A stretch of 31,915 nucleotides of DNA from Burkholderiales bacterium (GCA_017880745.1 JADGRR010000001.1:1-31915); one strand, 5' to 3'; positions 7,193 to 29,367 are shown, counted from the stretch's first letter. Made by a program: numbers and translations. Notes: generated by a model not told the origin, from the sequence alone.

Positions 7193-7273
7193 GGCGTAGT
7201 CCCGGAAGAAATGAGGTTGAGCGTTGATTGCGCGAACCGATTATTCTGTTTTGTGGAAGCGCCGTCTGGATTA

Positions 7274-9545: not shown

Positions 9546-9574
9546 TTGCGCGATACGCCCTGCTCACATACAAT
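9546..9574 (+). promoter_or_regulatory. sigma70-type promoter for the TRAP operon
   Basis: TTGCGC-17 nt-TACAAT, followed by an 8-bp 5'UTR hairpin (9586-9607) and SD GAGGAGG before ATG 9637. Confidence 0.55.
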
Positions 9575-9636
9575 CCGATGGGACTGCGAAGCCCGGAGAG
9601 GCTTCGCCTCGATTTCAATATCCTGAGGAGGGCAAC

Positions 9637-10656: not shown

Positions 10657-10673
10657 GCCGCGTTCTCCACGTC

Positions 10674-10715
10674 CAGGCGGGTTTGCCCGACCAGCGCGTC
10701 GGCCGGACCCGCCTG
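10674..10715 (+). other. Long intercistronic hairpin between dctP and dctQ
   Basis: CAGGCGGGT/ACCCGCCTG outer 9-bp stem, G-U middle segment, CCGAC/GTCGG inner stem. Confidence 0.6.
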
Positions 10716-10758
10716 CGTTTGAAGCCATTCCTAGCTACCGAATAGCCGGTTTCTGCCC

Positions 10759-11283
10759 ATGCAGCAAAACGTGAAGCGCAACTTCATGGATCGGGTGATC
10801 GACTCGATCGAACTGGTGGCGGCAGCATTCGTCGGCATCGTCGCGGCCGACATCTTCATCTCGGTCATGCTGCGCTATTTCTTCAGCGTTTCCATTCCGG
10901 ATGGCTACGATTTCGGGCGGCTGCTCCTCGGCATTCTCATTTTCTGGGGCATCGCGGCGACGAGCTACAGGGGCACGCACATCACGGTCGATCTGGTCTG
11001 GGGAGCCGTTGGGCCGAGGCACAAGCGCCTGATCGACATCTTTGCCACGCTCGTGCTGCTGTTCGTGGTGACGGTGCAGACGACCATGCTGTTTGACAAA
11101 GTCCGCGGCACGCTCGAGGACCACGTGCTGACCTACGACCTCGGCCTGCCGACGTGGCCGTTCTTTGCGGTCGCCTGGGCCGGCGACGTGTCCGCGGTCG
11201 TCCTGATCGCGATACGCACCTACCGGCTGATATTTCATCCGGATCTGATCGCCCCGAGGCTCCAGAGCCAACCCGATGAATGA
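10759..11283 (+). CDS. dctQ: TRAP transporter small permease (DctQ)
   Basis: Four TM segments, RYFF...IP, HITVDL motif. Lies between dctP and dctM. Confidence 0.88.
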   Translation: MQQNVKRNFMDRVIDSIELVAAAFVGIVAADIFISVMLRYFFSVSIPDGYDFGRLLLGILIFWGIAATSYRGTHITVDLVWGAVGPRHKRLIDIFATLVLLFVVTVQTTMLFDKVRGTLEDHVLTYDLGLPTWPFFAVAWAGDVSAVVLIAIRTYRLIFHPDLIAPRLQSQPDE

Positions 11284-12595: not shown

Positions 12596-12653
12596 GGGGC
12601 GCTGTCGCTGCGGCGGTCCAGGACTCTGGGCGGCTGATGCCCGGTCCAGGTCC

Positions 12654-14000: not shown

Positions 14001-14106
14001 GCGGGCAAGCATAGCCGAAATCGGCGCTGATCTGGCGAATCCGCTGCGGCCGGAGGCGCGTGCACCGCGCGCGCGAACTGCAAGCGCAGCCTGAGCGTTT
14101 GCGCCG

Positions 14107-14784
14107 TCAGTCTTCACCCCGGGCCTGGAACACAAGATAATACTGGTTGGGGAGGAAGCGATGTTCGCCCTGGAGCCGGTATCCCGCCTTGGCCATTTCG
14201 GCCACCACGCGCTTGCCCGCGATGCGCTGGCTCGGCGGCGGTCCCATCGCGGATTTGGCGTTGAAGTCGACGATGGCGACGCGCCCGCCGGGTTTGAGCG
14301 ACTGCGCGAGTTTGCGAAAGTAGCCCTCGCGCTGCTCGATGTGGTGATAAGTGTCGACCATGAGGGCGAGATCGACCTTGCCCGGCAGGCGCGCATCGTC
14401 CGGCGCTCCCGCGACCGCGGTGAGATTGGCTAGGCCTTCGCGTCTGGCGCGGTCGGCGAGGTACTTCACCATGTCCGGTTCGATATCCACCGCGTAGACC
14501 CGGCCCTGAGGCACGAAATGCGCGAGGCGCACGGCGAAGTAGCCGGTGCCCGATCCTATGTCCGCCACCGTGGCATCGGGCTTGAGCGCCAGGGCCTCGA
14601 TCACCTGATGCGGCTTCTGCCAGGCATCGCGGCTGGGGTCGTCGAACACCTCGGCCCAGCGCTCGGCGCCGCCGAAGCTGTGCTGGTGGGTGTGGGGCGA
14701 CTGCGCCTGCGCCGGCCCGGGCCCGAGGCCGGCGCAGGCGAGTGCGAGCGTCAGAACCGCGGTGGACAGGGCGCGCGTCATCAT
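14107..14784 (-). CDS. Class I SAM-dependent methyltransferase with predicted signal peptide
   Basis: Motif [21 protein letters not shown]-terminal hydrophobic segment ending AQA, followed by a His-rich stretch HTHQH. Confidence 0.85.
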
Positions 14785-14893
14785 GTTTTCCGTTACTGGT
14801 CGACCGTCAGATAGACTATCCTAAACCTCATTCGCCCTGTGGGGGAACCCCGGCGCCGTCCGGCCGGGCGCGTAGCTGTCCACGACAAGTCGA

Positions 14894-14922
14894 TGGACTT
14901 ATGCACCCGGAGCCGGTAGACT
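14894..14922 (+). promoter_or_regulatory. sigma70-type promoter for prfC
   Basis: TGGACT-17 nt-TAGACT, 26 nt upstream of ATG 14949. Confidence 0.45.
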
Positions 14923-14948
14923 GCCCGCCTTTTCGCGCACCTGTGCCC

Positions 14949-16607
14949 ATGGCCGCCGCTGTCGAGCTTGTATCTTCCCCAACTGCTGAGGCCGACGCCG
15001 CGCGTGCGCCGGCCGAGCGGATTGCGCGCGAAATGGCGCGCCGCCGAACTTTCGGCATCATCGCCCACCCTGACGCAGGCAAGACCACGCTTACCGAGAA
15101 GCTGCTGCTGTTCTCCGGCGCGATTCAGCTCGCCGGCACGGTGAAGGCGCGCAAGAGCCGCCGTCACGCGACCTCGGACTGGATGGAGATCGAGAAGCAG
15201 CGCGGCATATCTGTGGCGAGCTCGGTGATGCAGTTCGAGTACCGCGGCTGCGTGGTCAACCTGCTCGACACCCCGGGGCACCAGGATTTTTCCGAGGACA
15301 CCTACCGCGTGCTCACTGCAGTCGATTCCGCGCTGATGGTGATCGACTCCGCCAAGGGCGTGGAAGAGCAAACGGTCAAGCTGCTGAATGTGTGCCGCAT
15401 GCGCAACACGCCGATCCTCACCTTCATGAACAAGATGGACCGCGAAACCCGCGAACCGCTGGCGCTGCTCGATGAAGTGGAGTCGGTGCTCAAGATCCAG
15501 TGCGCGCCGGTGACCTGGCCCATCGGCATGGGCAAGTCGTTCCGCGGCGTGTATCACCTGCTGCGCGACGAGATTTTGCTGTTCACCGCGGGCGAGGACC
15601 GCGCCGACCAGGAATTCGAGGCGATCGCGGGGATCGATAACCCGCGGCTGGCCGAGATGTTTCCGCGCGAGATCGAGCAGCTCAAGGCCGAAGTCGCGCT
15701 GGTGCGCAGTGCCATGCACCCGTTCGACCTCGGCGCCTTCCTCGACGGCACGCAGACGCCGGTGTTCTTCGGCTCGGCCGTCAACAACTTCGGCGTGCGC
15801 GAGATCCTGAACGCGCTGATCGACTGGGCGCCGGCCCCGCGCGAGCGCGACGCGACGCTGCGCATCGTGGCGCCGGGCGAACCGCGATTCTCCGGCTTCG
15901 TGTTCAAGATCCAGGCCAACATGGATCCGGCGCACCGCGACCGCATCGCCTTCCTGCGCGTGTGCTCGGGGCGCTTCGAGCGCGGCATGAAAATCAGGCA
16001 CCTGCGCCTCGACCGCGAAATCAAGGTGAACAACGTCGTCACGTTCATGGCCTCGAGCCGCGAGCAGGTGGAAGAGGCCTACGCCGGCGACATCGTCGGT
16101 CTGCCCAACCACGGGCAGATGCAGATCGGCGACAGCTTCTCCGAAGGCGAAGCGCTGCAGTTCACCGGGATACCCTATTTCGCGCCGGATTTTTTCCGCT
16201 CGGTCCGTATCCGCAATCCGATCAAGGTCAAGCAGCTGTACAAGGGCTTGCAGCAGCTCGGCGAAGAGGGCGCGGTGCAGGTATACAAACCCGTCCTCGG
16301 CGGCGATCTGATCCTCGGCGCGGTGGGCGTGCTGCAGTTCGAGGTGGTCGCGAGCCGCCTTGCGAACGAATATGGGGTCGATGCGGTGTTCGAGGGCACC
16401 CCGGTCACCTGCGCGCGCTGGGTGACGGGTGAGGACAAGCGCATGCTGGCCGAGTTCGAGAAGATGCTGGCGCACAACATCGCCCGCGATGCCGCCGGCA
16501 GCCTCGCCTACCTCTCGCCCAATAGCGTCAATCTGCAGCTGACGCAGGAGCGCTGGCCCAAGCTCAGGTTCCATGAAACGCGCGAGCACGCGCTGACGCC
16601 GGAGTGA
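14949..16607 (+). CDS. prfC: Peptide chain release factor 3
   Basis: [53 protein letters not shown] and [11 protein letters not shown] motifs. Confidence 0.96.
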
Positions 16608-16639
16608 ACAGCGGCGCGGCCGCGGCGAAGCCGCACATC

Positions 16640-16725
16640 AGAAGAGGAAGCTCCGCTCACACGGAGCCAAAAAAGTAAGCCCCGCTTGAGGCGGGGCGAA
16701 AAGGAAGCCCCGCATGACGCGGGGC
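16640..16725 (-). terminator. Three stacked intrinsic terminator hairpins facing the minus strand
   Basis: GCCCCGC-5-GCGGGGC at 16707-16725 then TTCCTTTT. GCCCCGC-5-GCGGGGC at 16679-16697 then TTACTTTTTT. GCTCCG-6-CGGAGC at 16650-16667 then TTCCTCTTCT (minus-strand reading). Confidence 0.7.
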
Positions 16726-16843
16726 CGGTGGCACCCCATTGCGGAAGTGCCGATGCCGTAGTTACGGCGCGTGCGGGGCTGGGCCCCGTTCGTAGGTGAA
16801 ACTAAAAGTCACGTTTCAGTCGATTTGCCTCCTTCTTAACTAC
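16699..16843 (-). ncRNA. Candidate small RNA (or tiny-peptide mRNA), ~145 nt
   Basis: Bounded by a near-consensus promoter and a terminator, contains four internal hairpins and AAGGAGG near the 5' end, and has no ATG ORF. Family not recognised. Confidence 0.55.
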
Positions 16844-16849
16844 ACTTAA

Positions 16850-16878
16850 TTTATAGACCCGGCGCGAGCGGAAGTCAA
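16850..16878 (-). promoter_or_regulatory. Strong sigma70-type promoter for the candidate sRNA
   Basis: Minus strand TTGACT (16878-16873)-17 nt-TATAAA (16855-16850). Confidence 0.7.
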
Positions 16879-16938
16879 GGCCGGCGAAGACGCGCATCGA
16901 GGTTTGGACCGGGCGCGACCTCAGGCTTCGGCTTGGCA

Positions 16939-16967
16939 TTGCCTCGGTCGCGGGCTTGGAGTAAATT
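16939..16967 (+). promoter_or_regulatory. sigma70-type promoter for bug-dioxygenase-rhodanese operon
   Basis: TTGCCT-17 nt-TAAATT. SD AGGAGG before ATG 17048. Confidence 0.5.
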
Positions 16968-17047
16968 GGCCGGTTACAAAAACAATGCTTGCCTGGCGCG
17001 CCGGAGTTTGTCCCGCGCCGGAGCAGGATCACCTAGGAGGGAAAACC

Positions 17048-18010
17048 ATGAAAGCAGCGTGGATTGCGGCAATCGCGCTTGCTGTGGCCGGGAGCGCGCT
17101 GGCGCAAGGCAGCTATCCGGCGCGCCCCGTCACCATGGTGGTCGGTTTCGCGCCCGGAGGCGGCACCGATACGGTGGCGCGCATCGTCGCCAAGAATCTC
17201 GGCGAGAGCCTCGGCCAGCAGGTGCTGGTCGAGAACCGCGCGGGCGCGGGCGGCTATATCGCCACCGAATATGTGGCTCGTGCGGCCCCGGACGGCTATA
17301 CGATACTGCTCGGCAACGTCGGCTCGCTCGCGGTAACGCCGCACATGATCGTCAGCCCCAGTTACGACCCATTGCGCGATTTCGCACCGATCACCATGGC
17401 GGTGGTGTTCGCCAACGTGATCGTGGTGCCGTCCTCGGTGCCGGCGCGGACGCTGGCCGAGTTTGTGAAGCTGGCGCAGGCGAAGCCGGGGACGGTCACC
17501 TACGGCACGTCCGGCATCGGCGGCGCCGGCCACCTCGCCGGCGAGCTGTTCAAGACCAGGGCAAACATCGACTTGGTCCACGTGCCTTACAAGGGCGGCG
17601 GTCCGTCGATGCAGGGCCTGCTGGGCGGTCAGGTCATGTCGAGTTTCGCGACGCCGGTGTCCGTAGTCGAGCACATTAAGGCGGGCAAACTCCGCGCGCT
17701 CGCCACCACCGGGCCGAAGCGGGCGGCGCTGCTGCCCGACGTGCCGACGGTGGCCGAGTCTGGCTATCCCGGCTTCGAGGCGATGAACTGGTACGCCTAT
17801 GTGGCACCGGCAAAGACGCCGAAGGAGATCATCGAGCGGCTGAACCGCGAACTGGTGAAGGCGCTCAACAACGCGGATGTCGCGGCCCTGCTGCACCAGC
17901 AGGGGCTCGAACCCAGCCCCAGTTCGCCCGCGGAGCTGGCCCGTTACATGGAGCGCGAGTACCAGACCTGGGGCAAGGTGGTGAAACAGGCCGGCATCAA
18001 GGCGCAGTGA
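17048..18010 (+). CDS. Bug/TctC-family (tripartite tricarboxylate transporter) substrate-binding protein
   Basis: YPARPVTMVVGFAPGGGTD, VENRAGAGG, PDGYTILL, YGTSGIGG..HLAGE and HVPYKGGG motifs. Signal peptide ending ALAQ. Confidence 0.92.
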   Translation: MKAAWIAAIALAVAGSALAQGSYPARPVTMVVGFAPGGGTDTVARIVAKNLGESLGQQVLVENRAGAGGYIATEYVARAAPDGYTILLGNVGSLAVTPHMIVSPSYDPLRDFAPITMAVVFANVIVVPSSVPARTLAEFVKLAQAKPGTVTYGTSGIGGAGHLAGELFKTRANIDLVHVPYKGGGPSMQGLLGGQVMSSFATPVSVVEHIKAGKLRALATTGPKRAALLPDVPTVAESGYPGFEAMNWYAYVAPAKTPKEIIERLNRELVKALNNADVAALLHQQGLEPSPSSPAELARYMEREYQTWGKVVKQAGIKAQ

Positions 18011-18060
18011 CGGCGAACCCGCCGCGGCTGCCGCTTGCGGCCGGGATCCGAGGAGCAACC

Positions 18061-18648
18061 ATGGACAAGACACAGGAGCGCAGCCGCGAGATCGACGCTG
18101 CCGTGGCCGATATCCGCGCCATCGAGCAGCGCGACGGCGTCACGCGCGCAAGCCTCGCGAAAATCCGCCAGCGGCTGATCCAGCTCGCCGCGCGCACCGA
18201 TCTGTTTACCGTGCAGGACTTTCCACCGCCCGCGCCCGGCGGCGCGCGCAACTCCTGCCTCTATCGCCTGGCCGAGGACGCCGACCACCGCTTCGCGCTG
18301 TATGCCAATTCCTCCCTCGGCGGTTACGCCACGCCCGCGCACAACCACACTACGTGGGCGGTGATCGTCGGCGTGAGCGGCGAAGAACTGAACCGCTTCT
18401 ACGATCGCACCGCCGAAAACGGCGTGCGCGAAAAAGGCCAGCATGTGGTGCGGCAGGGCTCGGGCGTGTCGTTCATGCCCGAGGACCTGCATTCCATCCA
18501 CATCGACGCGCCGCTGCTGAATTTCCACATGTACGGCCTCGCGCTGGAGCAGTTGCACCGGCGCGAATTCTACAAGCCCGACAAGCACGCCTGGGGAATA
18601 TTCCCGCCGCATTCCGACATTCGTGAAGCGCGAACCGGCCGCGCATGA
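18061..18648 (+). CDS. Cysteine dioxygenase-family thiol dioxygenase
   Basis: Cupin 3-His set (AHNHTTWAVI, DLHSI) and FHMYG. SD GAGGAG before ATG 18061. Confidence 0.82.
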   Translation: MDKTQERSREIDAAVADIRAIEQRDGVTRASLAKIRQRLIQLAARTDLFTVQDFPPPAPGGARNSCLYRLAEDADHRFALYANSSLGGYATPAHNHTTWAVIVGVSGEELNRFYDRTAENGVREKGQHVVRQGSGVSFMPEDLHSIHIDAPLLNFHMYGLALEQLHRREFYKPDKHAWGIFPPHSDIREARTGRA

Positions 18649-18774
18649 GCCCGCCGGGCCGCCCCAAGGGCGAATCCTTGGCGCGAAGCGACAAGGTAAT
18701 CCAATGAGCCCGCCGGGCCGCCCCAAGGGCCGCATCTTCGATATGGGCTTGGCGCGAAGCGACAAGGTATTCCA
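18645..18774 (+). repeat. Two tandem copies (59 nt, 71 nt) of a small repeat element, each encoding a coupled mini-ORF
   Basis: Shared 27-nt head ATGAGCCCGCCGGGCCGCCCCAAGGGC and 27-nt tail CTTGGCGCGAAGCGACAAGGTA(A/T)TCCA. Units are 18645-18703 and 18704-18774. Confidence 0.85.
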
Positions 18775-20382
18775 TTGACCCGCGTCATTTCGCCCGCGGC
18801 GCTGCGCGAGCTCCTGCTCTCCGCTACCGAGATCGCGCTGCTCGACGTGCGCGAGCAGGGCGTGCATTGCCAGGGGCATCCATTCTTCGCCTGCGCGCTG
18901 CCGCTATCCAGGCTGGAACTGATGGTCGGCGACCTGGTGCCGCGGAGCAGCGCGCCTATCGTGCTGATCGACGGCGGCGGCGAGGGTCTGGCCGAGCGCG
19001 CCGCGGCCAAGCTCGCCGAACTGGGCTACACCGACATCGCGATCCTCGAGGGCGGCTGCGCCGGCTGGAAGGCGGGTGGTGGCGAGCTCTTTTCCGGCGT
19101 TAACGTTCCGTCCAAGGCCTTCGGCGAATTCGTCGAACACCATTACGACACGCCGCGGGTGCCGCCGCAGGAAATCAGGCGGCTGATCGACAGCGGCAGA
19201 AAGCTCGTCATCCTCGATTCGCGGCCATACGCGGAATACCACCGCATGAGCATCCCGGGTGCGATCGATACGCCGGGCGCCGAACTGGTGTATCGCGTGC
19301 ATGACCTCGCGCCCGACCCGGAGACGCTGGTGGTGGTGAATTGCGCCGGCCGCACGCGCAGCATCATCGGCTGCCAGTCGCTCAGGAATGCCGGCATTGC
19401 CAACCAGGTCGTGGCGCTGAAGGACGGCACCATGGGCTGGGAACTCGCCGGCTACCAGTGCGAGCGCGGTTCGACCGGCGCGGCGAGCGCGCCCAGCGCT
19501 GCGGGCGAGGCGAAGGCGCGCGCCGCCGCAGAACACGTGGCGCGGCGCTTCGAAGTGAAATTCGCGACGCGCGGAGAGGTCGAGTCCTGGCGGCGCGATC
19601 CCGGCCGCACTTTGTACCTGCTCGACGTGCGCACGCGCGAGGAATTCGAGCAGGTGCGCATCGCCGGTTCGCGCCATGCGCCGGGCGGACAGCTCATCCA
19701 GGCGACGGACGAATTCGTCGGCGTGCGCGGCGCGCGCATCGTATGCATCGATCCGGCGCGGGTGCGCTCGGTGATGACCGCGTCCTGGCTCAATCAGATG
19801 GGCTGGAGCGAAGTCTATGTGCTCCAGCCCGAAGGCAGGGACGGCTTTGCCGGCTGGACGCTCGAGTCCGGCCCGCGCAGTCCAACCCCGCTCGGCTTCA
19901 AACCCTGGCGCACCGTCACGGCGCGGGAGCTGGTGCAGCGCCGGCAACAGGGCGGCGTGACGGTGCTCGATCTTGCGACCAGCCTCAGGTTTCGCGAGCG
20001 CCATATCCCTGGCGCCTGGTGGGCGGTGCGCGCGCGGCTGGATGAGGCGCGCGCGAAGCTCGCCGATGCGCAGGCGCTGGTTCTGACATCGGAGGACAGC
20101 ACGCTCGCGCATCTGGCGGCGCCAGAAGCCGCCGCACTCTGGCCGGATGCGGAAGTGAGTGTGCTCAAGGGCGGCAATGCGATTTGGTTCGCGGTGAAGC
20201 TGCCTGCCGAGACCGGTATCGCGAATGCGACCACCACGCCGGACGACGTCTGGTACAAACCTTACGATCACGACCACGCCCAGGACTACGAGAAGCACGC
20301 GCGTGCTTACCTCAGCTGGGAAGTCGCGCTGGTCGAGCAGATCAAGCGCGATCCCACGATCCGTTTCCGCTGCTACGACTGA
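18775..20382 (+). CDS. Multi-domain (four-repeat) rhodanese-related sulfurtransferase
   Basis: Four rhodanese repeats (LLDVRE, ILDSRP, LLDVRT, VLDLAT). Only repeat 2 has a Cys loop (NCAGRTRS). TTG start with AAGGT 6 nt upstream. Confidence 0.88.
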   Translation: MTRVISPAALRELLLSATEIALLDVREQGVHCQGHPFFACALPLSRLELMVGDLVPRSSAPIVLIDGGGEGLAERAAAKLAELGYTDIAILEGGCAGWKAGGGELFSGVNVPSKAFGEFVEHHYDTPRVPPQEIRRLIDSGRKLVILDSRPYAEYHRMSIPGAIDTPGAELVYRVHDLAPDPETLVVVNCAGRTRSIIGCQSLRNAGIANQVVALKDGTMGWELAGYQCERGSTGAASAPSAAGEAKARAAAEHVARRFEVKFATRGEVESWRRDPGRTLYLLDVRTREEFEQVRIAGSRHAPGGQLIQATDEFVGVRGARIVCIDPARVRSVMTASWLNQMGWSEVYVLQPEGRDGFAGWTLESGPRSPTPLGFKPWRTVTARELVQRRQQGGVTVLDLATSLRFRERHIPGAWWAVRARLDEARAKLADAQALVLTSEDSTLAHLAAPEAAALWPDAEVSVLKGGNAIWFAVKLPAETGIANATTTPDDVWYKPYDHDHAQDYEKHARAYLSWEVALVEQIKRDPTIRFRCYD

Positions 20383-20459
20383 ACATCGCGCCGCCGCGGT
20401 GCGCCCGCGGTAGAATCGTGGTGGGAACTCGTAGTTTCCGCGAGGCCATCGTCCGCACC

Positions 20460-21386
20460 ATGTATTTCATCACACCACAGGCCACCAAGGTGCTCACGCA
20501 CCCGGGCGCGTTCGCGCTGCGGGTGCTGAGGGCGTTTCGCGCCAATCAGGGCCTGCTTCTCGCCGGCGCCGTGGCGTATTACACCCTGCTTTCCATGGTG
20601 CCGGTGCTCATCCTCGTGGTGATCGCGCTGTCGCACGTGATCGACCTGGCGGTGCTGCTCGCGACCCTGCAACGCGCGCTGGAGTGGGTGGTGCCGGGGC
20701 AATCGCAGGCGATGCTGCGGGAGGCGTCGGCATTTTTCGCGCACCGCGAGGTGATCGGCTGGGTGCTGCTTGCGACCATGCTGTTCTTCAGCACGCTCGC
20801 TTTTCGTGTGCTGGAAAACGCGATCTCGGTGATATTTCTGCATCGGGTGGCGGAGCGCAGGCGCCACTTTCTGGTCTCGGCGCTGCTGCCCTTCGGTTAC
20901 ATCGTATTCATCGTCGCCGCTCTGCTCGTGGAAACCTTCGTCTTCGCAAGCCTGCTTGCGATCGGCGGAGCAAACATCGCCATCTTCGGATACAACTGGT
21001 CACTCGGCGAATTCGCGCGCCTGCTGGTGTATCTGGCCGGCGTGGGGGTGGAAATCCTGCTCATTTCCTCAATCTATTATTTCATGCCGGTGGGCCGGAT
21101 TTCGCCGAGCCACGCGCTGATCGGCGGCGCCACTGCGGGCCTGTTGTGGGAAATCATCCGCCACGCTCTGAAGTGGTATTTCGACACGCTGTCGCAAGTG
21201 AGCGTGGTGTACGGATCGCTCGCCACGGTTATCATCGTGCTGTTCAGCCTGGACTTCGCGGCCTCGCTGCTGCTGCTCGGCGCGCAAGTGATCGCGGAAT
21301 ACGAAATAATCGGCCAGGTCGATGCGCTGCGGCCGCCGGCGGCGCTGCGCACCGAGGCGGCGGGCGATCCGGCTGCGCTTATCTGA
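20460..21386 (+). CDS. YihY/BrkB-family membrane protein
   Basis: AGAVAYYTLLSMVP, LENAISVIF, IYYFMP and YGSLATVII motifs. Start uncertain (ATG 20460 or GTG 20418). Confidence 0.85.
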   Translation: MYFITPQATKVLTHPGAFALRVLRAFRANQGLLLAGAVAYYTLLSMVPVLILVVIALSHVIDLAVLLATLQRALEWVVPGQSQAMLREASAFFAHREVIGWVLLATMLFFSTLAFRVLENAISVIFLHRVAERRRHFLVSALLPFGYIVFIVAALLVETFVFASLLAIGGANIAIFGYNWSLGEFARLLVYLAGVGVEILLISSIYYFMPVGRISPSHALIGGATAGLLWEIIRHALKWYFDTLSQVSVVYGSLATVIIVLFSLDFAASLLLLGAQVIAEYEIIGQVDALRPPAALRTEAAGDPAALI

Positions 21387-22338
21387 CCAGATTGTCCGGG
21401 TCGGGCGCCTCGCCCCGCAGGTGGCGCACGATGTTGGTTGCGGCGATGGTGCCCACGCGCAGCAGCGAACCTTTCGTCGCTCCGGCGACGTGCGGCGTGC
21501 AGATGACGTTGTCCAGCGCGAACAGCGGATGCTTCGGATCGGGCGGCTCCGCCGCAAAGGTGTCCAGCCCCGCCCCGGCGAGGTGCCCGCTTCTGAGCGC
21601 GTCGGCGAGCGCGGCTTCATCGACCAGCGCGCCGCGCGCGGTGTTCACCAGCAGCGCGCCCGGAGGCATAGCCTGCAGCTGCGCTGCGCCCAGCATGCCG
21701 CGCGTAGCCGGAATCAGCGGGCAGTGCAGGCTCAGGATGTCGGCGCGGCCGAGCAGTGCCTCGAAGTCCGGCTCCACCTCGGCGCCCCCGGCGTCGGCGA
21801 TGGCGGAACGCGAATGGACCACGACGTTCGCGCCGAAGGCGGCCGCGAGTCGCGCCACTCGGCGCCCGATCTGGCCGTAACCGACAATACCCACCGTGCG
21901 GCCGCGGAACTCCCTGCCCTGAAAATGTGGCCGCTCCCAGGCACCGCTTTTCACGCCGCGGTCCAGCCGCGGCAGCTCGCGCGCAAGCGCGAGCATCAGC
22001 GCGAGCGCCAGTTCGGCGACGGCGTCGGCGTTCGCCGCGCCGGCCGTCATCACCGCGACGCGGCGCTCGGCGGCCGCTTGCACGTCGACGCTGTCCACGC
22101 CTGCGCCGTGCTTGGCGATGATCCTGAGTTGCGGGGCAGATTCGATCACGCGCCGCGTAAACGGCGGATTGCCGCGCATCAGCACCGCAGCGGGCTTGGC
22201 CCCGGCCAATGCGGCGATCGAGCTGTCTTCGGTGGTTGGCTCGGGCACGAAGGCGATTTCCAGGCCGGCGTCGCGCAGGATCTGCTGCGCCGGCTCGGAC
22301 AACTGCATCGAGGTCACGAGGACTACGGATTTGCTCAC
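21379..22338 (-). CDS. D-isomer-specific 2-hydroxyacid dehydrogenase (phosphoglycerate dehydrogenase family)
   Basis: GAGVDSVD, ANADAVAE, GIVGYGQIG, SLHCPL, VNTARG, GLDTF..EP and TPHVAG motifs. SD GAGGTG before GTG. Overlaps the yihY-like gene convergently by 8 bp. Confidence 0.9.
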   Translation of the reverse strand: MSKSVVLVTSMQLSEPAQQILRDAGLEIAFVPEPTTEDSSIAALAGAKPAAVLMRGNPPFTRRVIESAPQLRIIAKHGAGVDSVDVQAAAERRVAVMTAGAANADAVAELALALMLALARELPRLDRGVKSGAWERPHFQGREFRGRTVGIVGYGQIGRRVARLAAAFGANVVVHSRSAIADAGGAEVEPDFEALLGRADILSLHCPLIPATRGMLGAAQLQAMPPGALLVNTARGALVDEAALADALRSGHLAGAGLDTFAAEPPDPKHPLFALDNVICTPHVAGATKGSLLRVGTIAATNIVRHLRGEAPDPDNLVR

Positions 22339-22454
22339 GGTCTCACCTCATTCGGCCCAGACCAGTCTAACGCAAGCTTCGCCGGAGCGCGAACGCCTCC
22401 GGGGCGTTGCGCCTGCGGCGAGGGCAACGCGGCGCAGGCGCGCTGTTCCCCCCG

Positions 22455-22519
22455 CGCCTCACTCAACCCTTATCCCGGTCGCCGCGGCCACGCGCGTCCA
22501 TTTTTCCACGTCGGCCGCG
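22455..22519 (-). pseudogene. Orphan 3'-end fragment of a bug gene (direct repeat of 25489-25553)
   Basis: Translates to AADVEKWTRVAAATGIRVE* versus AADVEKWTRVVAATGVKVE* at the end of the 25493-26464 gene. 57/65 nt identical. Confidence 0.85.
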
Positions 22520-22571
22520 CCGCGGCCCAAGCGGCGCGGAGGGGTCCCATCCCCTCTTCGGCGCAATGCGG

Positions 22572-24143
22572 TTACAAATGTGATTCTTTGTAGTCGAGTT
22601 CCTCTTCGAATTCATGCAGCACATCATCGCTGATCTGGTTTTCGAGCCAGATGCGAATCAGCTCCTGCCGCTCGGCATTGATTGCGGCGTGCCTGAGCCG
22701 GCGCGCGAACTCGGCGTGGCTTTCCGAAACAGACGCATCCGCATCGCCAGCGGCGTTCTTCTCGGCGAATTCGGCGCTGATCCGACCTGCCAGGTCAGGC
22801 GCAATGTCATCCTGATGCGCGAGTGCGTCGATGGCGGCAATCGCCGCCTTGCTCATGGCGTTGCGCGCGTTCTCCTGCTCGTCTCGCAGGCTCCAGTCGA
22901 TCCCGACACGCAGCCAGCGGATCAGAGCCGGCAGCGTCAAACCCTGCAGCACCAATGTCGCCGCGATGATCGCAAAGGTGAAAAAGATGATGACGTCGCG
23001 GTACGGAAACGGCATCCCGTCGGCGAGCGTGATCGGCAGTGCCAGAGCGGCCGCCAAAGACACGATGCCGCGCATGCCGCACCAGCTCATGATGAAAAAC
23101 TCCGCCTCGGGCGGTGCCGCCTCGCTCTTCCGGAGCGAGGCGCTCAGCTTGCGCGGCACGTACAGCGCCGCATAGACCCAGGCAAAACGGACGATGATCG
23201 CAACCGCGCTCAGCAGGGCTGCGTCGGACATAAGTCTGGCCGCCGAGTACCCTACCAGGCGCGCAACGCTGCCCGAAAGCTGCATACCGATCAACACGAA
23301 AACCAGCGTGTTCAGCAGGAACACTATCACGTTCCACATCGAGCGCGAAAGAATGCGCATTTCCGCCGATACCACAACTGGCGTGTGACGGCCGCGCACC
23401 AACCCCGCTGCAACCACGGCAAGCACTCCCGATGCGTGCACGGACTCGGCGCAGACATAGGCGACGTACGGAACGAGCAGCGACGTCAGCACTTCTATGA
23501 AGACGTCGCCAAGATGGCGGTGAATGACGATGAACACCAGCCCCGTGAGGATGCCGAGTACGATGCCCCCGATAGCCACGCCGACGAATTGCACGCTCGC
23601 ATCGAACATCGAAAAAGTCCCGGTCATGACGGCAGCGACGGCGAATTTGTAGAGCACCAGCCCCGATGCATCGTTGACCAGGCTCTCGCCTTCGAGCACC
23701 GTAACCACGCGGCGCGGAATTTTCAGCCGCGACAGGATCGCGGTGGCGGCCACCACGTCCGGAGGTGAAACGATGGCGCCGAAAACAAAAGCCGCGGCCC
23801 AGGGAATGCCTGGTAGCAGGAGCTTGAGCGAAGTACCGACGGCAAGCGTGGTCACGACAACCAGGCCAATGGCGAGCAGGCTTATGGTGCGGATGCTCAG
23901 CGCGAAATCGCGCCAGGAGGTGAGCGCTGCCGCCTGATACAGGATGGGCGGCAGTACCACGATCAGGATGAGTTCGGGATCGAAGGCCAACTGCGACACC
24001 AGTGGGATGAACCCGAGCACGCCGCCGCCGATGACCAGCGCGATGGGGTAGGGAAAATTGAAGTGCCGTGCAACCCAGCAGAGCGCGACCGCGCAAAGCG
24101 ACACGAATACGGTTATCTGCAGCAGTTCCATAGCGCCAATCAT
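22572..24143 (-). CDS. CPA1-family Na+/H+ antiporter
   Basis: LPPILY, FGAIVSPPDVVA, LEGESLVNDASGL, SGVLAVV and SWCGMRGIVSLAAAL motifs, plus a cytoplasmic tail. Start ATG 24143 or 24131. Confidence 0.92.
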   Translation of the reverse strand: MIGAMELLQITVFVSLCAVALCWVARHFNFPYPIALVIGGGVLGFIPLVSQLAFDPELILIVVLPPILYQAAALTSWRDFALSIRTISLLAIGLVVVTTLAVGTSLKLLLPGIPWAAAFVFGAIVSPPDVVAATAILSRLKIPRRVVTVLEGESLVNDASGLVLYKFAVAAVMTGTFSMFDASVQFVGVAIGGIVLGILTGLVFIVIHRHLGDVFIEVLTSLLVPYVAYVCAESVHASGVLAVVAAGLVRGRHTPVVVSAEMRILSRSMWNVIVFLLNTLVFVLIGMQLSGSVARLVGYSAARLMSDAALLSAVAIIVRFAWVYAALYVPRKLSASLRKSEAAPPEAEFFIMSWCGMRGIVSLAAALALPITLADGMPFPYRDVIIFFTFAIIAATLVLQGLTLPALIRWLRVGIDWSLRDEQENARNAMSKAAIAAIDALAHQDDIAPDLAGRISAEFAEKNAAGDADASVSESHAEFARRLRHAAINAERQELIRIWLENQISDDVLHEFEEELDYKESHL

Positions 24144-24214
24144 TTTCTCAAGTGCTTGGGCGGTATTGGCTGCCCAAGAATAGACCAGTGGTGAAAGCGT
24201 TTTGTCAGGCTGCT

Positions 24215-24242
24215 ATTGTGATTTGATGTATTTCAGAGTCAA
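24215..24242 (-). promoter_or_regulatory. Candidate sigma70 promoter for the antiporter
   Basis: Minus strand TTGACT-16 nt-CACAAT in an AT-rich tract. Confidence 0.4.
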
Positions 24243-24358
24243 CGCATATTTCTGCGAGGAACGTTGTGCGGCCTGGAGGGGTGCATCGCGTGTGGAACAG
24301 ATGGGGTCACTCCGCCCCTGATGTTCTCCTCAAAACCTTTGCCGGACATTTTTCTCGA

Positions 24359-24517
24359 CTAGGCGGCCAGCCGGCCCGCCGCGAGCACATCCAGGGTCTG
24401 GCTGGCGCTTTGACCTGCCCGCTCGCCGCCGGCTGGATGACGTGCAGTGTCTCCGCGGCGCGGGTCGCGTGACCTCTCGGCGACGGCGACAAAACTGCGC
24501 AATTGGTAAAGCTCCAT
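24359..24517 (-). pseudogene. Frameshifted, truncated LysR-type regulator (HTH only)
   Basis: MELYQLRSFVAVAE in one frame, then a shift near 24475 to GHATRAAETLHVIQPAASGQVKA in another frame. Similarity ends ~24406 and there is no substrate-binding domain. Confidence 0.8.
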
Positions 24518-24569
24518 GTGAAAACCTGCTCTTGATTGCCATGTAAGATGCCATTCCAGGTTCGAATTT

Positions 24570-24601
24570 GTGCATTGCACCATATACTTAGACTAAGTAT
24601 A
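24570..24601. promoter_or_regulatory. Two adjacent perfect palindromes (candidate operators)
   Basis: GTGCA-T-TGCAC (24570-24580) and TATACTTAG-A-CTAAGTATA (24583-24601). Confidence 0.5.
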
Positions 24602-24720
24602 AGCCGGGCTAATTAACTCAATCCGAACAAGCGATTGGATTGTTCCCCGCCTAGGCCCCATGTTGCATTGATACGGCGTCTTTTCGGCGCTGGCTCCGAT
24701 AGTTAGGAAAGGACTGGAAG

Positions 24721-25080
24721 ATGAGACTCTACCCACCGATGTATCCCGGCGACAGCATGCTGCGGCCTGGAACCGTTCCAGGAGGCGATATTGTGAGTGC
24801 CTGGAATACGGCGATGTTCAGGATACCTTTTGTGCGAAGCAAAATCCGTGCGGAAGAGGCATCCGGAGTTGGAGCCGAAGCCGCGGCACCGAAGCGGCAC
24901 GCCCGCGCCACGCCCGGGGTCTGGGTCGGCAGCCAGCTGAAGCCCTACTTCGAGGCGCTGATGCGCAAGTTCGAGCGCGCCGGACAGGCCGAGATGGAGA
25001 ATTACCTGGCCGCATCGCAGAACCTCGCCGACCTGGAGGACCGCATCCGCCGCTACGAGCGCATGCAGTCGCGGAACTGA
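24721..25080 (+). CDS. Small hypothetical protein with C-terminal DUF3563-like segment
   Basis: SD AAGGA before ATG. The C-terminus EMENYLAASQNLADLEDRIRRYER resembles the DUF3563 pattern as recalled, not searched. Start uncertain. Confidence 0.55.
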   Translation: MRLYPPMYPGDSMLRPGTVPGGDIVSAWNTAMFRIPFVRSKIRAEEASGVGAEAAAPKRHARATPGVWVGSQLKPYFEALMRKFERAGQAEMENYLAASQNLADLEDRIRRYERMQSRN

Positions 25081-25128
25081 CCACGCAATGACCGCACCGC
25101 GCTACGCACACCCTATGAGGATTTCGAA

Positions 25129-25371
25129 ATGAATGCCATGACAGACAAAGCATCAAACAGGTCCAGTGTCTTCACCCGCCTGGACACGATACGCATGAGC
25201 CAAGAGCAACGCAGGCAGGCCAACGCGAGCTTGCGCGACGCCGAACTCATCGCCGGACTTGTGCTGCGCGCGACGGCCGACATGCGTGCCATCGCGCGCG
25301 GCGTCGAGCATGCCGCTGTCAGCCTGGCGAGCGGCATCAAGGCGATGTTTGCCAGGCCCGTCAAGCACTGA
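25129..25371 (+). CDS. Small hypothetical alpha-helical protein (80 aa)
   Basis: SD GAGGA 7 nt before ATG, host-like codon usage, amphipathic helical pattern. Confidence 0.6.
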   Translation: MNAMTDKASNRSSVFTRLDTIRMSQEQRRQANASLRDAELIAGLVLRATADMRAIARGVEHAAVSLASGIKAMFARPVKH

Positions 25372-25492
25372 TCCCCGGCCGCACGGTATCCAGGACGCCA
25401 GCGATGCCCATGCAAAGGAACCTGCAGCGCATCGCCGTCGGTCTCGTCCACTGGCCAAGCTCGACGACATTGCCGAACCGGTGCCGCCCGCC

Positions 25493-26464
25493 TCACTCCA
25501 CCTTCACCCCGGTCGCCGCGACCACGCGGGTCCACTTCTCCACGTCGGCCGCGATATAGCGCGCGAACGCTTCGGGGGTGTTGCCACCGGGCTCGGCGCC
25601 GAGTTCGAACAATTGCTTCACCATGTCCGGCTGCTTCAAGATGTCGCCGATGTTCTTGTACAGCAGGTCGATGACGGGCTTGGGGGTGCCGGCGGGCGCG
25701 AGCAGGCCGAACCAGGCCGAAACTTCGTAGCCGGGCAGGCCGCTCTCGGCCATGGTCGGGACATCGGGCGCGCCCGGCCAGCGCTTCGTCGTGGTCACTG
25801 CGATCGCGCGCAACTTGCCCGAGCGTATGTGCCCGATCGAGGAGGGCATGTTGTCGAAGCCCATCTGGATCTGCCCGCCGACGAGGTCGATCAGCATCGG
25901 TCCTGCGCCTTTGTAGGGGATGTGCGTGATGTCGATGTTCGCCATGGTCTTGAACAGTTCGCCCGCCATGTGCGGCGATCCGCCCGGGCTGGTCGAGCCG
26001 AAATTCAGCGTGCCCGGCTTGGCGCGCGCCAGCGCCAGCAGTTCCTGCAGATTCTTCGCCGGGACCGAAGGATGCACGGTCAGCACGTTGGGCGTATTCC
26101 CGACGATGGTGATCGGCGCGAAATCCTTCACCGCGTCGTAGGGCAGGTTCTTGAACAGCGCCGAGTTGATGCCGTGCGTGCCGATCGTGCCCATGCACAG
26201 CGTATAGCCGTCGGCCGGCGACCTGGCCACGGCCTGCGTGCCGATCGCGCCGCTCGCACCGCCGCGGTTCTCGACGATGAATGACTGCTTCAGCCGCTCG
26301 GTGAGGCGCTGGGCAATCACGCGCGCAAGTATGTCCGTAGTCCCGCCGGGCGGATAGGGCACGATGATTTTCACCGGCTTGTCCGGGTACTCGGCGAGTG
26401 CGCTCGCCGCCGCGCAACACAGCGCGACGATGATCAAGCCGAGAAAACGCTTCAGATTATTCAT
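25493..26464 (-). CDS. Bug/TctC-family substrate-binding protein
   Basis: YPDKPVKIIVPYPPGGTTD, VENRGGASG, ADGYTL and HIPYKGAG motifs, signal peptide. ATG overlaps the upstream TGA. Confidence 0.92.
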   Translation of the reverse strand: MNNLKRFLGLIIVALCCAAASALAEYPDKPVKIIVPYPPGGTTDILARVIAQRLTERLKQSFIVENRGGASGAIGTQAVARSPADGYTLCMGTIGTHGINSALFKNLPYDAVKDFAPITIVGNTPNVLTVHPSVPAKNLQELLALARAKPGTLNFGSTSPGGSPHMAGELFKTMANIDITHIPYKGAGPMLIDLVGGQIQMGFDNMPSSIGHIRSGKLRAIAVTTTKRWPGAPDVPTMAESGLPGYEVSAWFGLLAPAGTPKPVIDLLYKNIGDILKQPDMVKQLFELGAEPGGNTPEAFARYIAADVEKWTRVVAATGVKVE

Positions 26465-26829
26465 GTTGTGCTCCCTCTAGCCTGCCCCATCCCGCGCAAC
26501 TTCCCCTTCAAAGCATCCGGCACCTCGATCTCGAATCCCAGCACCGCCGCCGACAGTGCCTTGCCGTAATTGTCCAGGCACAGGCTCCTCGACACGCCGC
26601 CGCCCAGCGCCCCCTGTGCGACGAAGTTGAGCGCACCGATGCCGTCGACCGCATAGCGATCCACCCGGCCCTTCACCGTGCCCGCGTAAAACGCCTTGAA
26701 GCGCTCGGCGGTGAGCTGCTGCTTCAATAGCGGGTAGAACTCCGGCGCGTAGGCGATCACCATGATATTCGAGGTGTCGCCCTTGTCGCCGGAGCGCGCG
26801 TGCGCGAGGTGCTGCAGTTTGACTCGCAT
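26461..26829 (-). CDS. Small AtuA-related protein (homologous to AtuA C-terminal domain)
   Basis: LAHARSGDKGD.SNI.VIA...LNFV..GALGGG.SRSL.LD..GKALS, in frame from ATG 26829. The upstream part of the ORF-track entry overlaps AtuA. Confidence 0.8.
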   Translation of the reverse strand: MRVKLQHLAHARSGDKGDTSNIMVIAYAPEFYPLLKQQLTAERFKAFYAGTVKGRVDRYAVDGIGALNFVAQGALGGGVSRSLCLDNYGKALSAAVLGFEIEVPDALKGKLRGMGQARGSTT

Positions 26830-26831
26830 GA

Positions 26832-28190
26832 TCAGCTCTCGAAGTAGTTGATGGAAGGATGCACCTTCTCGCGCGGCACCAGCGCCGACCAGACGCCGAT
26901 GATTTCGCGAAACCGGTCCTGGTGCGGCACGCGCTTGCCCGTATGCGCGACACCGGACACCGCCATGCCGTCGACTTCGCGCCCGACCTTGATCGCTTCT
27001 TCCCTCGTTTTCGTCCGCGCCGCCACGCGCACCGCGACCTCGTAGGGCTCGGGGCCGTTTTTCGGCGACATCTCGCCGTGGATGGCGTTGACGCCGAGGA
27101 AGTCGATGCGCAGGTCGTCGGCTTTGAGCTTGACGATCTTGAAGCGCTCTTCGAGGATTTTCTTCGCCAGCTGCGCGCGGCGCAATGCGCCGGGCCCGGC
27201 GTAGAAGAACATGTCCTCGCCGATGAAGCCCTCGGTGCAGCCGATCGAAACCTTCAGCGTCGGCGTGCGCGGTTTGCCGGAGATGTTGGAGACGCGCACG
27301 CGGTCTCCGCCCAGGTCTTCCAACCTGATGGTGGTGAAATCCACCACCACATCGGGCGTGATGTAGTTGGCCGGGTCGTGCACTTCGTACAGGCACTGCT
27401 CCTTCACCGTCATCAGGTTGATCGCCCCGCCCGTGCCCGCGACTTTGGAAAGGATGCAACCGCCGTCGGGCGAAACCTCGGCGATCGGGAATGCCAGGTT
27501 CCATGGCTCGGGTACGTCCTTGAAGCCGGGGTCACTGAAATAGCCGCCGGTGACCTGCGCGCCGCATTCCATCAGGTGCCCGATGCCGGTGCCCGGGCCG
27601 AGGTGCATGTGATCCATCGCGTCCCAGCCGAATTCATACATCATCGGCGCCAGGAACAGCGACGGGTCGGCGACGCGCCCGGTCACCACGATCTGCGCGC
27701 CTGCTTTCAATGCGTCGACGATGGGTTCGGCGCCGAGATAGGCTTCGGCGGAAATCAGGTTGGGCGCCAGCGTTCTTGTCGGCTCGCCGTTCTCGAGAAT
27801 CCTGTCGGTCAGCTCCAGCACGCGCTCGGTGATCAGCGCGCCGTTCACCGCGGCCACCTTCACTCCTTTCGCGCCGAAATGACGCAGCCAGTGCACGATG
27901 CGTTCGGCCGCGGCGTTGGGGTTGATCCAGCCCTGGTTGGTTATTATCTTTGTGCCGCGTTTCAGGCAACCCGGCAGCACGCCCTTGATGCGGTCATCCA
28001 GGTACGTGTCGTAGCCGGGAAAGGACGGGTCGCGGCGCGCTCTCACCTGGGCGGCCGAGACCGTGGCTTCGGCCATGGTTTCGAAGCAGAGATAATCGAG
28101 GTCGCCTTTGTCGGCGTTGAGGATGGCGGGCTCGACGCGATCGCCCCACCAGGCGGCGCCGGAGCCAATTCGGATTACTTTACCGGACAT
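26832..28190 (-). CDS. Acyclic terpene utilization AtuA-family protein (DUF1446)
   Basis: IRIGSGAAWWGDR, DYLCFETMAE, AYLGAEPI..AL..GA.IVVTGRVADPSL, GHLMECGAQVTGGY and EQCLYEVHDP.NYITPDV motifs. Confidence 0.88.
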   Translation of the reverse strand: MSGKVIRIGSGAAWWGDRVEPAILNADKGDLDYLCFETMAEATVSAAQVRARRDPSFPGYDTYLDDRIKGVLPGCLKRGTKIITNQGWINPNAAAERIVHWLRHFGAKGVKVAAVNGALITERVLELTDRILENGEPTRTLAPNLISAEAYLGAEPIVDALKAGAQIVVTGRVADPSLFLAPMMYEFGWDAMDHMHLGPGTGIGHLMECGAQVTGGYFSDPGFKDVPEPWNLAFPIAEVSPDGGCILSKVAGTGGAINLMTVKEQCLYEVHDPANYITPDVVVDFTTIRLEDLGGDRVRVSNISGKPRTPTLKVSIGCTEGFIGEDMFFYAGPGALRRAQLAKKILEERFKIVKLKADDLRIDFLGVNAIHGEMSPKNGPEPYEVAVRVAARTKTREEAIKVGREVDGMAVSGVAHTGKRVPHQDRFREIIGVWSALVPREKVHPSINYFES

Positions 28191-28512
28191 CGGGATTCCA
28201 ATAAGTTGCGCTGGTTGACTGCCTACTCGGGTACGCATCTCTGCCACCTCAAATGGTTCCGGCATCGATTTTGTCGTACTCACAGTGCGTGCCTACGAAC
28301 CTACCATGTTCCTAAAACGGGAGCAACGGCGCCGGCGGCGATCGGGTCCCGTCCCGCATGGTTCGGCTGCTTTGAGGTATCGACCCGCACGCGCGCGGCC
28401 GGGTCAGGATTTCCCGGTTTCTTTGACATGCGACAAGTCCGGCGCCGTCCGATTGGCGATAATTCGACCGGCGAATGCAGCACGTTTTCAACTTGACCGG
28501 ATCGAGGGACAT

Positions 28513-29367
28513 ATGGACATCAGGCAAATCGGGATCATAGGCGCGGGTACCATGGGCAACGGCATTGCGCAGGCCTTTGCAATCTGCGGTTTTGACGTAA
28601 CGATGACGGACATTTCCGCGGCGGCCGTGCAGCGCGGACTGAAGGCGGTCGATGGCAGTCTGGAACGCCTGGTGAAAAAGGAAAAACTGACCGCGGAGGC
28701 CAAGGCCGCGGCGCTGGGGCATATCAAGACTGCGACCGACGTGAACGCCGTACGCGGCAGCGATCTCATCATCGAGGCCGCAACCGAGAATCTGGACCTC
28801 AAGCTGAAAATCTTCGCGCAGCTCGCCGAACTCGCCGGCGACACGGCGATCCTGGCGACCAACACGTCCTCGATCTCGATCACGCGGCTCGCGGCTGCAA
28901 CCAAACTTGCGGACCGGGTGATCGGCATGCACTTCTTCAATCCGGTTGCGGTGATGCAGCTGGTCGAGTTGATTCGCGGCCTGCAGACCTCGGACGCGAC
29001 CTATGCCGCAGTGGCGGCAGTGGCGAAAAAGATCGGCAAGACGCCGGTACAGGTGAAGAACAGCCCGGGCTTCGTCGTCAATCGCATGCTTTGCCCGATG
29101 ATCAACGAGGCGATTTTTGCGTTTGCCGAAGGTCTGGCGAGCGTCGAGGAGATCGACAACGCGATGAAGCTGGGCGCCAATCACCCGATCGGGCCGCTCG
29201 CGCTATGCGATCTGATCGGCCTCGACGTGGAACTCGCGGTAATGAACGTGCTGTTCGAGGGCTTCAAGGATCCGAAATACCGGCCCGCGCCGCTGCTGGT
29301 GGAGATGGTGGAAGCGGGCTATCTCGGACGCAAGGCCGGGCGCGGTTTTTTCAACTACGCGAAATAG
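28513..29367 (+). CDS. hbd: 3-hydroxybutyryl-CoA (3-hydroxyacyl-CoA) dehydrogenase
   Basis: GIIGAGTMGNGIAQ, IIEAATEN, ATNTSSISIT, GMHFFNP, PGFVVNR and HPIGPL..DLIGLD motifs. ATG 28513 with GAGG SD. Confidence 0.92.
   Translation: MDIRQIGIIGAGTMGNGIAQAFAICGFDVTMTDISAAAVQRGLKAVDGSLERLVKKEKLTAEAKAAALGHIKTATDVNAVRGSDLIIEAATENLDLKLKIFAQLAELAGDTAILATNTSSISITRLAAATKLADRVIGMHFFNPVAVMQLVELIRGLQTSDATYAAVAAVAKKIGKTPVQVKNSPGFVVNRMLCPMINEAIFAFAEGLASVEEIDNAMKLGANHPIGPLALCDLIGLDVELAVMNVLFEGFKDPKYRPAPLLVEMVEAGYLGRKAGRGFFNYAK

Follow-up and report, generated by a model that had tools for sequence, protein, structure and literature searches.

A duplicated bug gene end around a mosaic insert: a candidate recombination scar in a permafrost Burkholderiales genome

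The window analysed here, a stretch of 31,915 nucleotides (nt), is one whole contig (C225) of a fragmented metagenome-assembled genome (MAG) of a Burkholderiales bacterium (3.6 Mb in 612 contigs, 77% complete, 63.6% GC). The public runs with this contig belong to a permafrost metagenome, and the nearest named records are those of uncultured Burkholderiales. Within the window, the 3' end of bug_Y, an intact gene for a periplasmic solute-binding protein of the TctC/Bug family, recurs about 3 kb away in the same orientation as an orphan fragment, termed relic A, and the two copies enclose a small group of other genes (Table 1). An original prediction, made from the sequence alone, had read this layout as the att-like footprint of an islet without integrase that had entered a protein-coding bug gene. 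The repeat and the content of the insert are described below together with the relics of an older gene order, and a recombination scar is weighed against an integrative islet and other origins.

The repeated gene end and the DNA between its copies

The two copies of the repeat were recovered by repeat search as well as by BLAST. Over a core of 65 nt they are identical at 57 positions (88%), as first reported, and the match extends to 70 nt with 60 identities (86%) at a spacing of 3034, the longest identical run being 14 nt. Read along the minus strand, the left copy gives AADVEKWTRVAAATGIRVE followed by a stop codon, and the live bug_Y gene ends in AADVEKWTRVVAATGVKVE and a stop; the A-type gene-end sequence of relic A is KWTRVAAATGIRVE. 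Nothing of the gene before these 19 codons is present, and relic A thus has neither the 5' part nor a start. Its assignment to bug_Y is made by nucleotide identity and covers only the last 19 residues of a TctC/Bug protein. The eight coding differences from the live end are distributed as originally described, with four synonymous changes, V>A, V>I (2 nt) and K>R.

Table 1. Features of the locus, in window coordinates
Feature	Position	Strand	Remarks
BrkB/YihY-family membrane protein	20490..21386	+	convergent on HADH, as in L203 and L205
D-2-hydroxyacid dehydrogenase (HADH)	21379..22338	-	ancestrally translationally close-coupled to bug_H
Last two codons and stop of bug_H (GCC GAA TGA)	22347..22355	-	conserved ribosome-binding site and HADH start directly after
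Relic of the bug_H upstream region	22362..22396	-	32/35 against L203 positions -73 to -39 before bug_H
Relic A	22450..22519	-	end of a bug_Y-type TctC gene: 19 codons, TGA and ~9 nt of 3' flank
Antiporter 3' flank	22520..22571	-	52 nt, short GC hairpin; join to relic A at 22519/22520
CPA1 Na+/H+ antiporter	22572..24143	-	intact, 523 aa; PF00999
AT-richer antiporter upstream region	24144..24404	.	one promoter-like site, 24242-24215, minus strand
LysR stump	24405..24517	-	codons 1-38 only; 2-nt deletion at codon 15
DUF3563-like small protein	24721..25080	+	weak Pfam match
ORF80, conserved small open reading frame	25129..25371	+	second gene of the DUF3563 module; no Pfam match
Spacer from ORF80 to the bug_Y stop	25372..25483	.	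module homology to a soil relative stops near 25434
Right-hand repeat copy, 3' end of intact bug_Y	25484..25553	-	65/66 identical to L123
bug_Y, intact periplasmic TctC/Bug solute-binding protein	25493..26464	-	323 aa; PF03401, E 5.6e-65
Inferred recombination breakpoint in bug_Y, ~codon 26	26387..26389	-	maximum chi-square 21.4, permutation p 0.001
atuAC, small protein with AtuA ferredoxin-like domain	26461..26835	-	PF23544
atuA, acyclic terpene utilisation family	26832..28283	-	PF07287, E 2.7e-140

Relic A was compared with its own genome, with 400 genomes of the order and with about 190 fetched loci. Apart from itself, the only match in its own genome is the live bug end (E 1.3e-16), and among the 39 bug 3' ends of this genome bug_Y alone possesses an orphan copy. 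The 400 genomes yielded no match above about 82% over 45 nt, and none of the fetched loci came closer than the bug_Y clade. Relic A agrees with the live end at 52 of 60 positions, with the two closest relatives of the operon, L123 and L124, at 50 and 51 of 60, respectively, and with more distant orthologues at 34–43 of 60. On the question which of the two 3' ends matches the orthologues, the live end fits L123 almost perfectly and relic A agrees with either relative only to the extent just given. The peptide motif KWTRV is common to relic A, bug_Y of the window and L123, with KWIRV in L124 and KWKKV or KWRKV in more distant orthologues; as relic A carries this state, it derives from a bug_Y allele or a very recent copy and not from an old paralogue.

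Chance similarity or an assembly artefact might be suspected, as GC-rich DNA gives many short spurious repeats and the genome is a fragmented MAG. However, the match stands out with the expectation value given above, it keeps the reading frame and the position of the stop codon, and more than 400 genomes offer no better one. In addition, separate Logan contigs of the source sample span the two junctions (20270–22718 and 25318–26803), which makes a mis-join of the MAG unlikely, and a 14-nt identical run is too short to mislead an assembler. This explanation therefore deserves hardly any credence.

The 2,964 bp between the copies are a mosaic with internal breakpoints, composed of a CPA1 antiporter gene, the stump of a LysR gene and a module of a DUF3563-like gene and ORF80. 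The Na+/H+ antiporter, AT-richer tract, broken LysR and two small open reading frames (ORFs) expected from the first inspection are thus all present. Every ORF between the repeats is assigned, and 586 nt are non-coding. The sequence around the left junction of the insert is GC-rich and has GGCCG-type repeats to either side of the join. Scans of the window with Rfam and for tRNA genes gave no matches, and RNA folding of 22339–22575 (z = -1.0) was of no help.

Homologues of the antiporter are 89–91% identical, and their similarity to the window ends within about 10 nt of the ORF. Their settings differ, the gene being convergent on BrkB in L210 and situated between an acyl-CoA dehydrogenase and DsbA in L209. 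A second CPA1 antiporter in the same genome (G000:C540:2374-4029) is 65% identical at the amino acid level, with a GC content at third codon positions of 0.93 against 0.77 in the window copy, which may be the more recent arrival of the two. The AT-richer region upstream of the antiporter has no match elsewhere. At the position of the LysR stump relatives carry a gene of 305–331 amino acids, with an extra GC at 24475 that is missing from the window. Across the genus the module of DUF3563 and ORF80 is arranged divergently from a full-length LysR gene, and since this gene is a stump here, the pair has lost its presumed regulator in this strain. The closest relatives of the DUF3563-like protein are at most 77% identical and lie on very short contigs. 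In the spacer behind ORF80, an exact 17-mer (25451–25467) found at six loci was considered as a further relic and rejected, because it corresponds to the conserved histidine-kinase motif LAKLD and no similarity extends beyond it.

The source-sample run and three other metagenome runs were compared with window positions 19500–29000, as contigs and not as reads. Contigs of the three other metagenomes match HADH, BrkB, the DUF3563 module and also bug_Y at 90–97% but cover almost none of the antiporter. Parts of the insert are found in unrelated chromosomal contexts in relatives of 89–92% identity. The antiporter, the module and bug_Y each occur in other neighbourhoods of 89–97% identical relatives, and the combination does not recur as a unit. 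The nearest copies of the insert genes belong to related uncultured Burkholderiales. The composition of the insert is native, with a tetranucleotide distance at the 47th percentile of the genome and a slightly low GC content at the 10th percentile; the compositional profile, which had been suggested as a check, does not set the islet apart.

Direct repeats over the 3' end of a gene, with the target left intact, are the layout that integrative elements leave at gene ends, and the locus resembles them in both the repeats and the intact target. A site-specific islet that used the bug 3' end as attB and restored it, with its integrase lost or acting in trans, would also fit the fact that three related genomes have a breakpoint right behind the stop codon of bug_Y. 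However, in contrast to integrative elements there is no integrase, no identical core, no element-like cargo and no recurrence of the unit elsewhere. The tyrosine recombinase family PF00589 is absent from C225, with matches on seven other contigs of the genome, and the 2,964 bp contain no unassigned coding space; the absence of an integrase from the islet, part of the original prediction, is thereby confirmed, and there is no room for one. Likewise, neither a transposase nor terminal inverted repeats are present at the insert. The repeats are only 86–88% alike, the cargo is pieced together from native genes, has breakpoints inside it and occurs in separate parts in relatives, and no second case exists among the bug ends of the genome. 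The joint of 22455 to 25489, which would represent excision or an empty site, was not listed in the four runs, a result that is uninformative either way, as only contigs were compared. The recombinase search, the repeat sequence and the native, mosaic cargo speak against an att-like integrative element, and this origin is considered very improbable.

A change of ancestry within bug_Y

The product of bug_Y matches PF03401 over profile positions 2–273 of 274, and an exact look-up of the protein returned a contig identical to the window as the sole match. The gene is the last of an operon, atuA-atuAC-bug_Y, which is kept in L031, L033, L035, L037, L038, L041, L123 and L124 and as far as Diaphorobacter, Comamonas and Pollutimonas, with unrelated genes downstream. 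The closest relatives of the operon are L123 (92.5% at the nucleotide level) and L124 (89.7%). The window, L123 and L124 align up to the stop codon of bug_Y, and past this codon all three are unrelated.

Several variants of the operon were encountered. In the MAG sequence L032 (1701–8001) about 6.3 kb lie between atuAC and the bug_Y homologue; every other copy of the operon that was encountered has the two side by side. A contig from a soil metagenome links position 26582 to 25487 through 14 additional letters, and this joint could reflect a tandemly repeated unit of bug_Y and part of atuAC in a relative. In L123 (1–400) and L124 (1–900) a BrkB gene, 76–83% identical to that of the window at the nucleotide level, is located divergently upstream of atuA. 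Compared with these two loci, BrkB of the window lies about 4 kb past the other end of the operon, an arrangement that resembles a circular permutation of two units.

The breakpoint in bug_Y was located with the maximum chi-square method and permutation, applied to all sites and to third positions. The break is unclear from sliding identity alone and becomes clear with these two measures. At about codon 26, the divergence from L123 falls toward the stop codon from 9.2% to 4.0% over all sites and from 20.1% to 8.4% at third positions (permutation p 0.001 or less; Fisher p 7e-6). With L124 the drop is much smaller (24.2% to 18.3%), and a slower rate of change in bug_Y therefore does not explain the break. 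In contigs of the three other metagenomes the core of bug_Y is 97% identical, compared with 90–93% for their other genes. Together with the break against L123, this core points to a tract of more recent common ancestry that extends from about codon 26 of bug_Y to the end of the gene and stops precisely where the insert begins. Such a tract, of other ancestry than the rest of the homologous anchor and adjoining the insert, is one of the features that were sought as a mark of a displacement scar, and it is present here.

The divergence of relic A can be compared with the same scale. At third positions relic A differs from the live end in 5 of 19 codons (26%), and outside the tract (atuA, atuAC and bug_Y codons 1–28) the divergence amounts to 19–29%. 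Due to this agreement, relic A fits the end of a resident allele which would belong with the present atuA and atuAC. In addition, at two sites (a GAA codon and an Ile codon) relic A agrees with L124 and departs from the live end. Part of the divergence looks like decay, as judged from the base changes: at five of the eight differences the live gene has G and relic A has A or T (GAA, AAA, ATA, GTT), and five differences are private to relic A and absent from L123 and L124, the latter set overlapping only partly with the former. Protein-level selection in place of neutral decay, as initially proposed, is favoured weakly by the finding that eight random substitutions would give at most three residue changes and no stop codon with p about 0.04; the G to A/T bias and the private differences, however, speak for decay.

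These features also bear on a duplication in situ at the time of insertion, by staggered-break or template-switch repair or as a trimmed tandem duplication, with subsequent divergence of the two copies and neutral change in the relic. Both copies share the TGA stop codon and the following GGCG, whereas L123 and L124 have TAG and unrelated flanks. The bias toward A/T and the private differences are as expected for decay in a GC-rich genome, and a divergence of 13% is compatible with neutral decay over roughly the time of the split between the window and L123. Against such a duplication stand the GAA and Ile codons that relic A has in common with L124 and not with the live end, and the small number of residue changes, which is mildly unexpected under pure decay. 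Moreover, a target duplication of 70 bp is far longer than known from transposition, for which the locus contains neither a transposase nor terminal inverted repeats. A duplication in situ is thus regarded as improbable, though less so than an integrative islet.

Relics of an older gene order upstream of HADH

On the other side of the insert, relic A faces the gene for HADH, whose close relatives show 87–93% identity. In L205, L207, L208, G001 and the contig carrying P0008, a full-length second gene of the family, bug_H, ends 10 nt before HADH; its identity to bug_Y is about 44%. In the window the relic of the bug_H upstream region is joined directly to the last codons, the stop codon and the ribosome-binding site, which indicates that the bug_H ORF was cleanly deleted. 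The deletion extends from about 38 nt before the start to the last two codons and possibly occurred via GCCG microhomology. In L203 bug_H is internally deleted, leaving an ORF of 56 amino acids, and in L204 it is a pseudogene; the gene has therefore been lost three times independently, in the window, L203 and L204. Relic A stops 62 nt before the upstream relic of bug_H, after which GCCGAATGA, the ribosome-binding site and HADH follow. Hence a displaced gene end in the same orientation lies behind the insert and before the old downstream neighbour, the second feature sought as a mark of a displacement scar.

A 24-nt match between 22387–22410 and 25561–25584 (21 of 24 identical) concerns bug_Y codons just upstream of the repeat, yet it is located downstream of relic A. 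This piece was considered as a further bug relic in permuted order and rejected, because a large share of it has its homologue in the sequence upstream of bug_H in L203; the piece probably represents ancestral spacer, with the resemblance to bug_Y partly due to chance.

The 135-kb contig L203 is syntenic with window positions 5603–22356 at 89–93%. It contains an internal relic of atuA (204 nt, 88%) situated 7.6 kb upstream of HADH on the same strand, and a gene of 775 amino acids and an ABC transporter operon lie between the two. The spacing of relic A and the bug_H relic, in combination with the atuA relic of L203, makes it plausible that a bug_Y-type gene once ended just upstream of bug_H-HADH. 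From the bug_H-HADH pair, the relics and the linkage of atuA and HADH in L203, the simplest ancestor would have had the order atuA-atuAC-bug_Y, a spacer of about 135 nt and bug_H-HADH, with BrkB convergent on HADH. The same observations suggest that different DNA has since entered between the atuA operon and the bug_H-HADH unit in L203 and in the window. Among the relatives no contig with bug_Y directly before bug_H-HADH was found, and the linkage of atuA and HADH was seen only as the relic in L203. A joint of 22357 to 25662 in two other metagenomes was examined as a candidate for the empty site and rejected, since the paralogue bug_H before HADH accounts for it better, with the aligner having caught the conserved Bug motif. 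The empty site had been predicted as bug directly followed by the dehydrogenase; the reconstructed order comes close to this, with bug_H in between, and no such contig was found. In the same way, the proposed insertion at a bug 3' end agrees with the older order that L203 and the relic spacing make plausible, while its site-specific agent does not appear.

Three further observations concern gene turnover in this region. In L203 (1–2400) the atuA relic abuts a cluster of DNA-methyltransferase and DndB-like genes, a defence-island-like insertion at the same variable spot. A gene of 213 amino acids and a rhodanese-repeat gene (18775..20382; region 18007–20382) are absent from L203 except for short remnants (11939–12125), and in G008 (C216) all that is left of the rhodanese gene is its 3' end of about 85 nt. 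Such short remnants of gene ends are frequent in the lineage.

The older order also allows for a lost paralogue. A second bug_Y-type gene would have stood between the DUF3563/LysR module and bug_H-HADH, and the event that brought the antiporter would have deleted its first ~304 codons and truncated LysR. The antiporter segment did destroy its neighbour on the other side, as the LysR stump shows, and one replacement could clip both ends. Tandem bug-bug pairs occur beside bug_Y homologues in L126 and L128, a C-terminal bug fragment adjoins bug_Y in L033, and the low number of residue changes among the eight substitutions (at most three; p about 0.04) fits two once-functional genes. However, an A-type gene end is found in no relative, on no other contig of the genome and in 0 of the 400 genomes of the order. 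Given the KWTRV state such a paralogue must be very young, yet the full copy is found nowhere, and the recombination breakpoint in bug_Y is left unexplained. A lost paralogue is accordingly unlikely, although it comes closest to the displacement described below.

Proposed displacement of the resident bug_Y end and its known counterparts

The locus is best explained as a recombination scar in a hypervariable stretch and not as the att site of a mobile islet. The origin to which about an even chance is given combines a homologous crossover in bug_Y with an illegitimate or short-homology join that displaced the 3' end of the resident gene. A related strain would have supplied DNA in which a bug_Y allele was followed by other chromosomal genes, and this DNA would have recombined with the resident gene in a crossover near codon 26. 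Its far end would have been joined at 22519/22520 to the 19th codon from the end of the resident bug_Y, illegitimately or by very short homology. The incoming allele would thereby complete bug_Y and carry behind it about 3 kb of cargo, consisting of the DUF3563 module with its LysR stump and the antiporter, while the last 19 codons of the resident gene would stay behind this cargo as the decaying, non-coding relic A. No recombinase would be needed, and either homology-facilitated illegitimate recombination or a Campbell-type single crossover of a circle carrying a short piece of the gene could account for the structure. The loss of bug_H would have followed later by a separate, clean deletion. 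On this reading tract and insert would have come together, the receiving lineage would be the present one, and the cargo, mosaic as it is, would have been put together before the transfer.

Several points weigh against this displacement. No donor was found in which bug_Y is followed by the DUF3563 module and the antiporter, and the empty site is reconstructed and was not observed in any relative found. Since the cargo is a mosaic, it was either assembled before the transfer or built by several events, and in the latter case the junction at 22519/22520 could postdate the arrival of the present bug_Y end and have nothing to do with it. The assignment of relic A to the resident allele is weak, as it comprises 60 nt only. 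An exchange in the lineage of L123 could instead be the reason why the bug_Y core has diverged so little, and because the 97% identical core occurs in three other metagenomes, the allele may simply spread alone. Finally, the displacement leaves unexplained the gene order of L123 and L124 with BrkB upstream of atuA.

The proposed event is of a known kind and appears here in a new gene family and lineage. Integration with homologous recombination at one end and illegitimate joining at the other has been described experimentally, and single crossovers of circles leave a duplication of 109–950 bp of the homologous piece around the insert (PMC3240628). For type VI secretion system (T6SS) and Rhs loci, displaced and orphaned gene 3' ends have been proposed to arise by this route (PMC5361080), and homology-facilitated illegitimate recombination is the subject of studies cited there (de Vries & Wackernagel 2002; Prudhomme et al. 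2002; Meier & Wackernagel 2003). As in that process, DNA would have entered beside a homologous anchor without a site-specific recombinase and with an illegitimate other end, and as in the single crossover of a circle, part of the homologous locus is directly duplicated around the insert. The difference is that the event is inferred here from a natural genome, with a duplication of 70 nt that has diverged by 13%.

C-terminal displacement has been described for effector loci of the Rhs, contact-dependent inhibition (CDI) and T6SS types (Jackson et al. 2009; Kirchberger et al. 2017; PMC5361080). There, an incoming module recombines in the conserved upstream part and supplies a new 3' end, and the old end persists downstream as an orphan. 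However, in those loci the new end is a different toxin domain and the exchange is diversifying, whereas the two ends of bug_Y encode almost the same 19 residues. Furthermore, the gene concerned here encodes a solute-binding protein, and the cargo consists of housekeeping-type genes.

For the annotation of genomes the locus holds a caution, as direct repeats of a gene 3' end around a few kb are insufficient for calling an integrative island. On the present evidence it is a single scar of modest general interest. A general role of bug paralogues as landing pads, which had been suggested at the outset, is unsupported, with no second case among the 39 bug ends of the genome. A broader idea, that Bug/TctC genes of Burkholderiales serve as recurrent homology anchors for integrase-free cassette swaps between related strains, with displaced 3' ends as their markers, is distinctly doubtful. 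It is kept weakly open by the breakpoint at the stop codon in three genomes, the disruption of bug_H in three lineages at the edge of variable DNA and the bug fragment of L033. If true, it would be the housekeeping-gene counterpart of C-terminal displacement in Rhs and T6SS loci, and if bug genes prove to be frequent anchors, this would help to explain genome fluidity and the turnover of the very large bug family. In itself, the locus offers a natural example of how gene order may be reshuffled in uncultured soil and permafrost Burkholderiales without the machinery of mobile elements, and the orphan gene end, the promoter relic and the regulator stump make the earlier gene order partly reconstructable.

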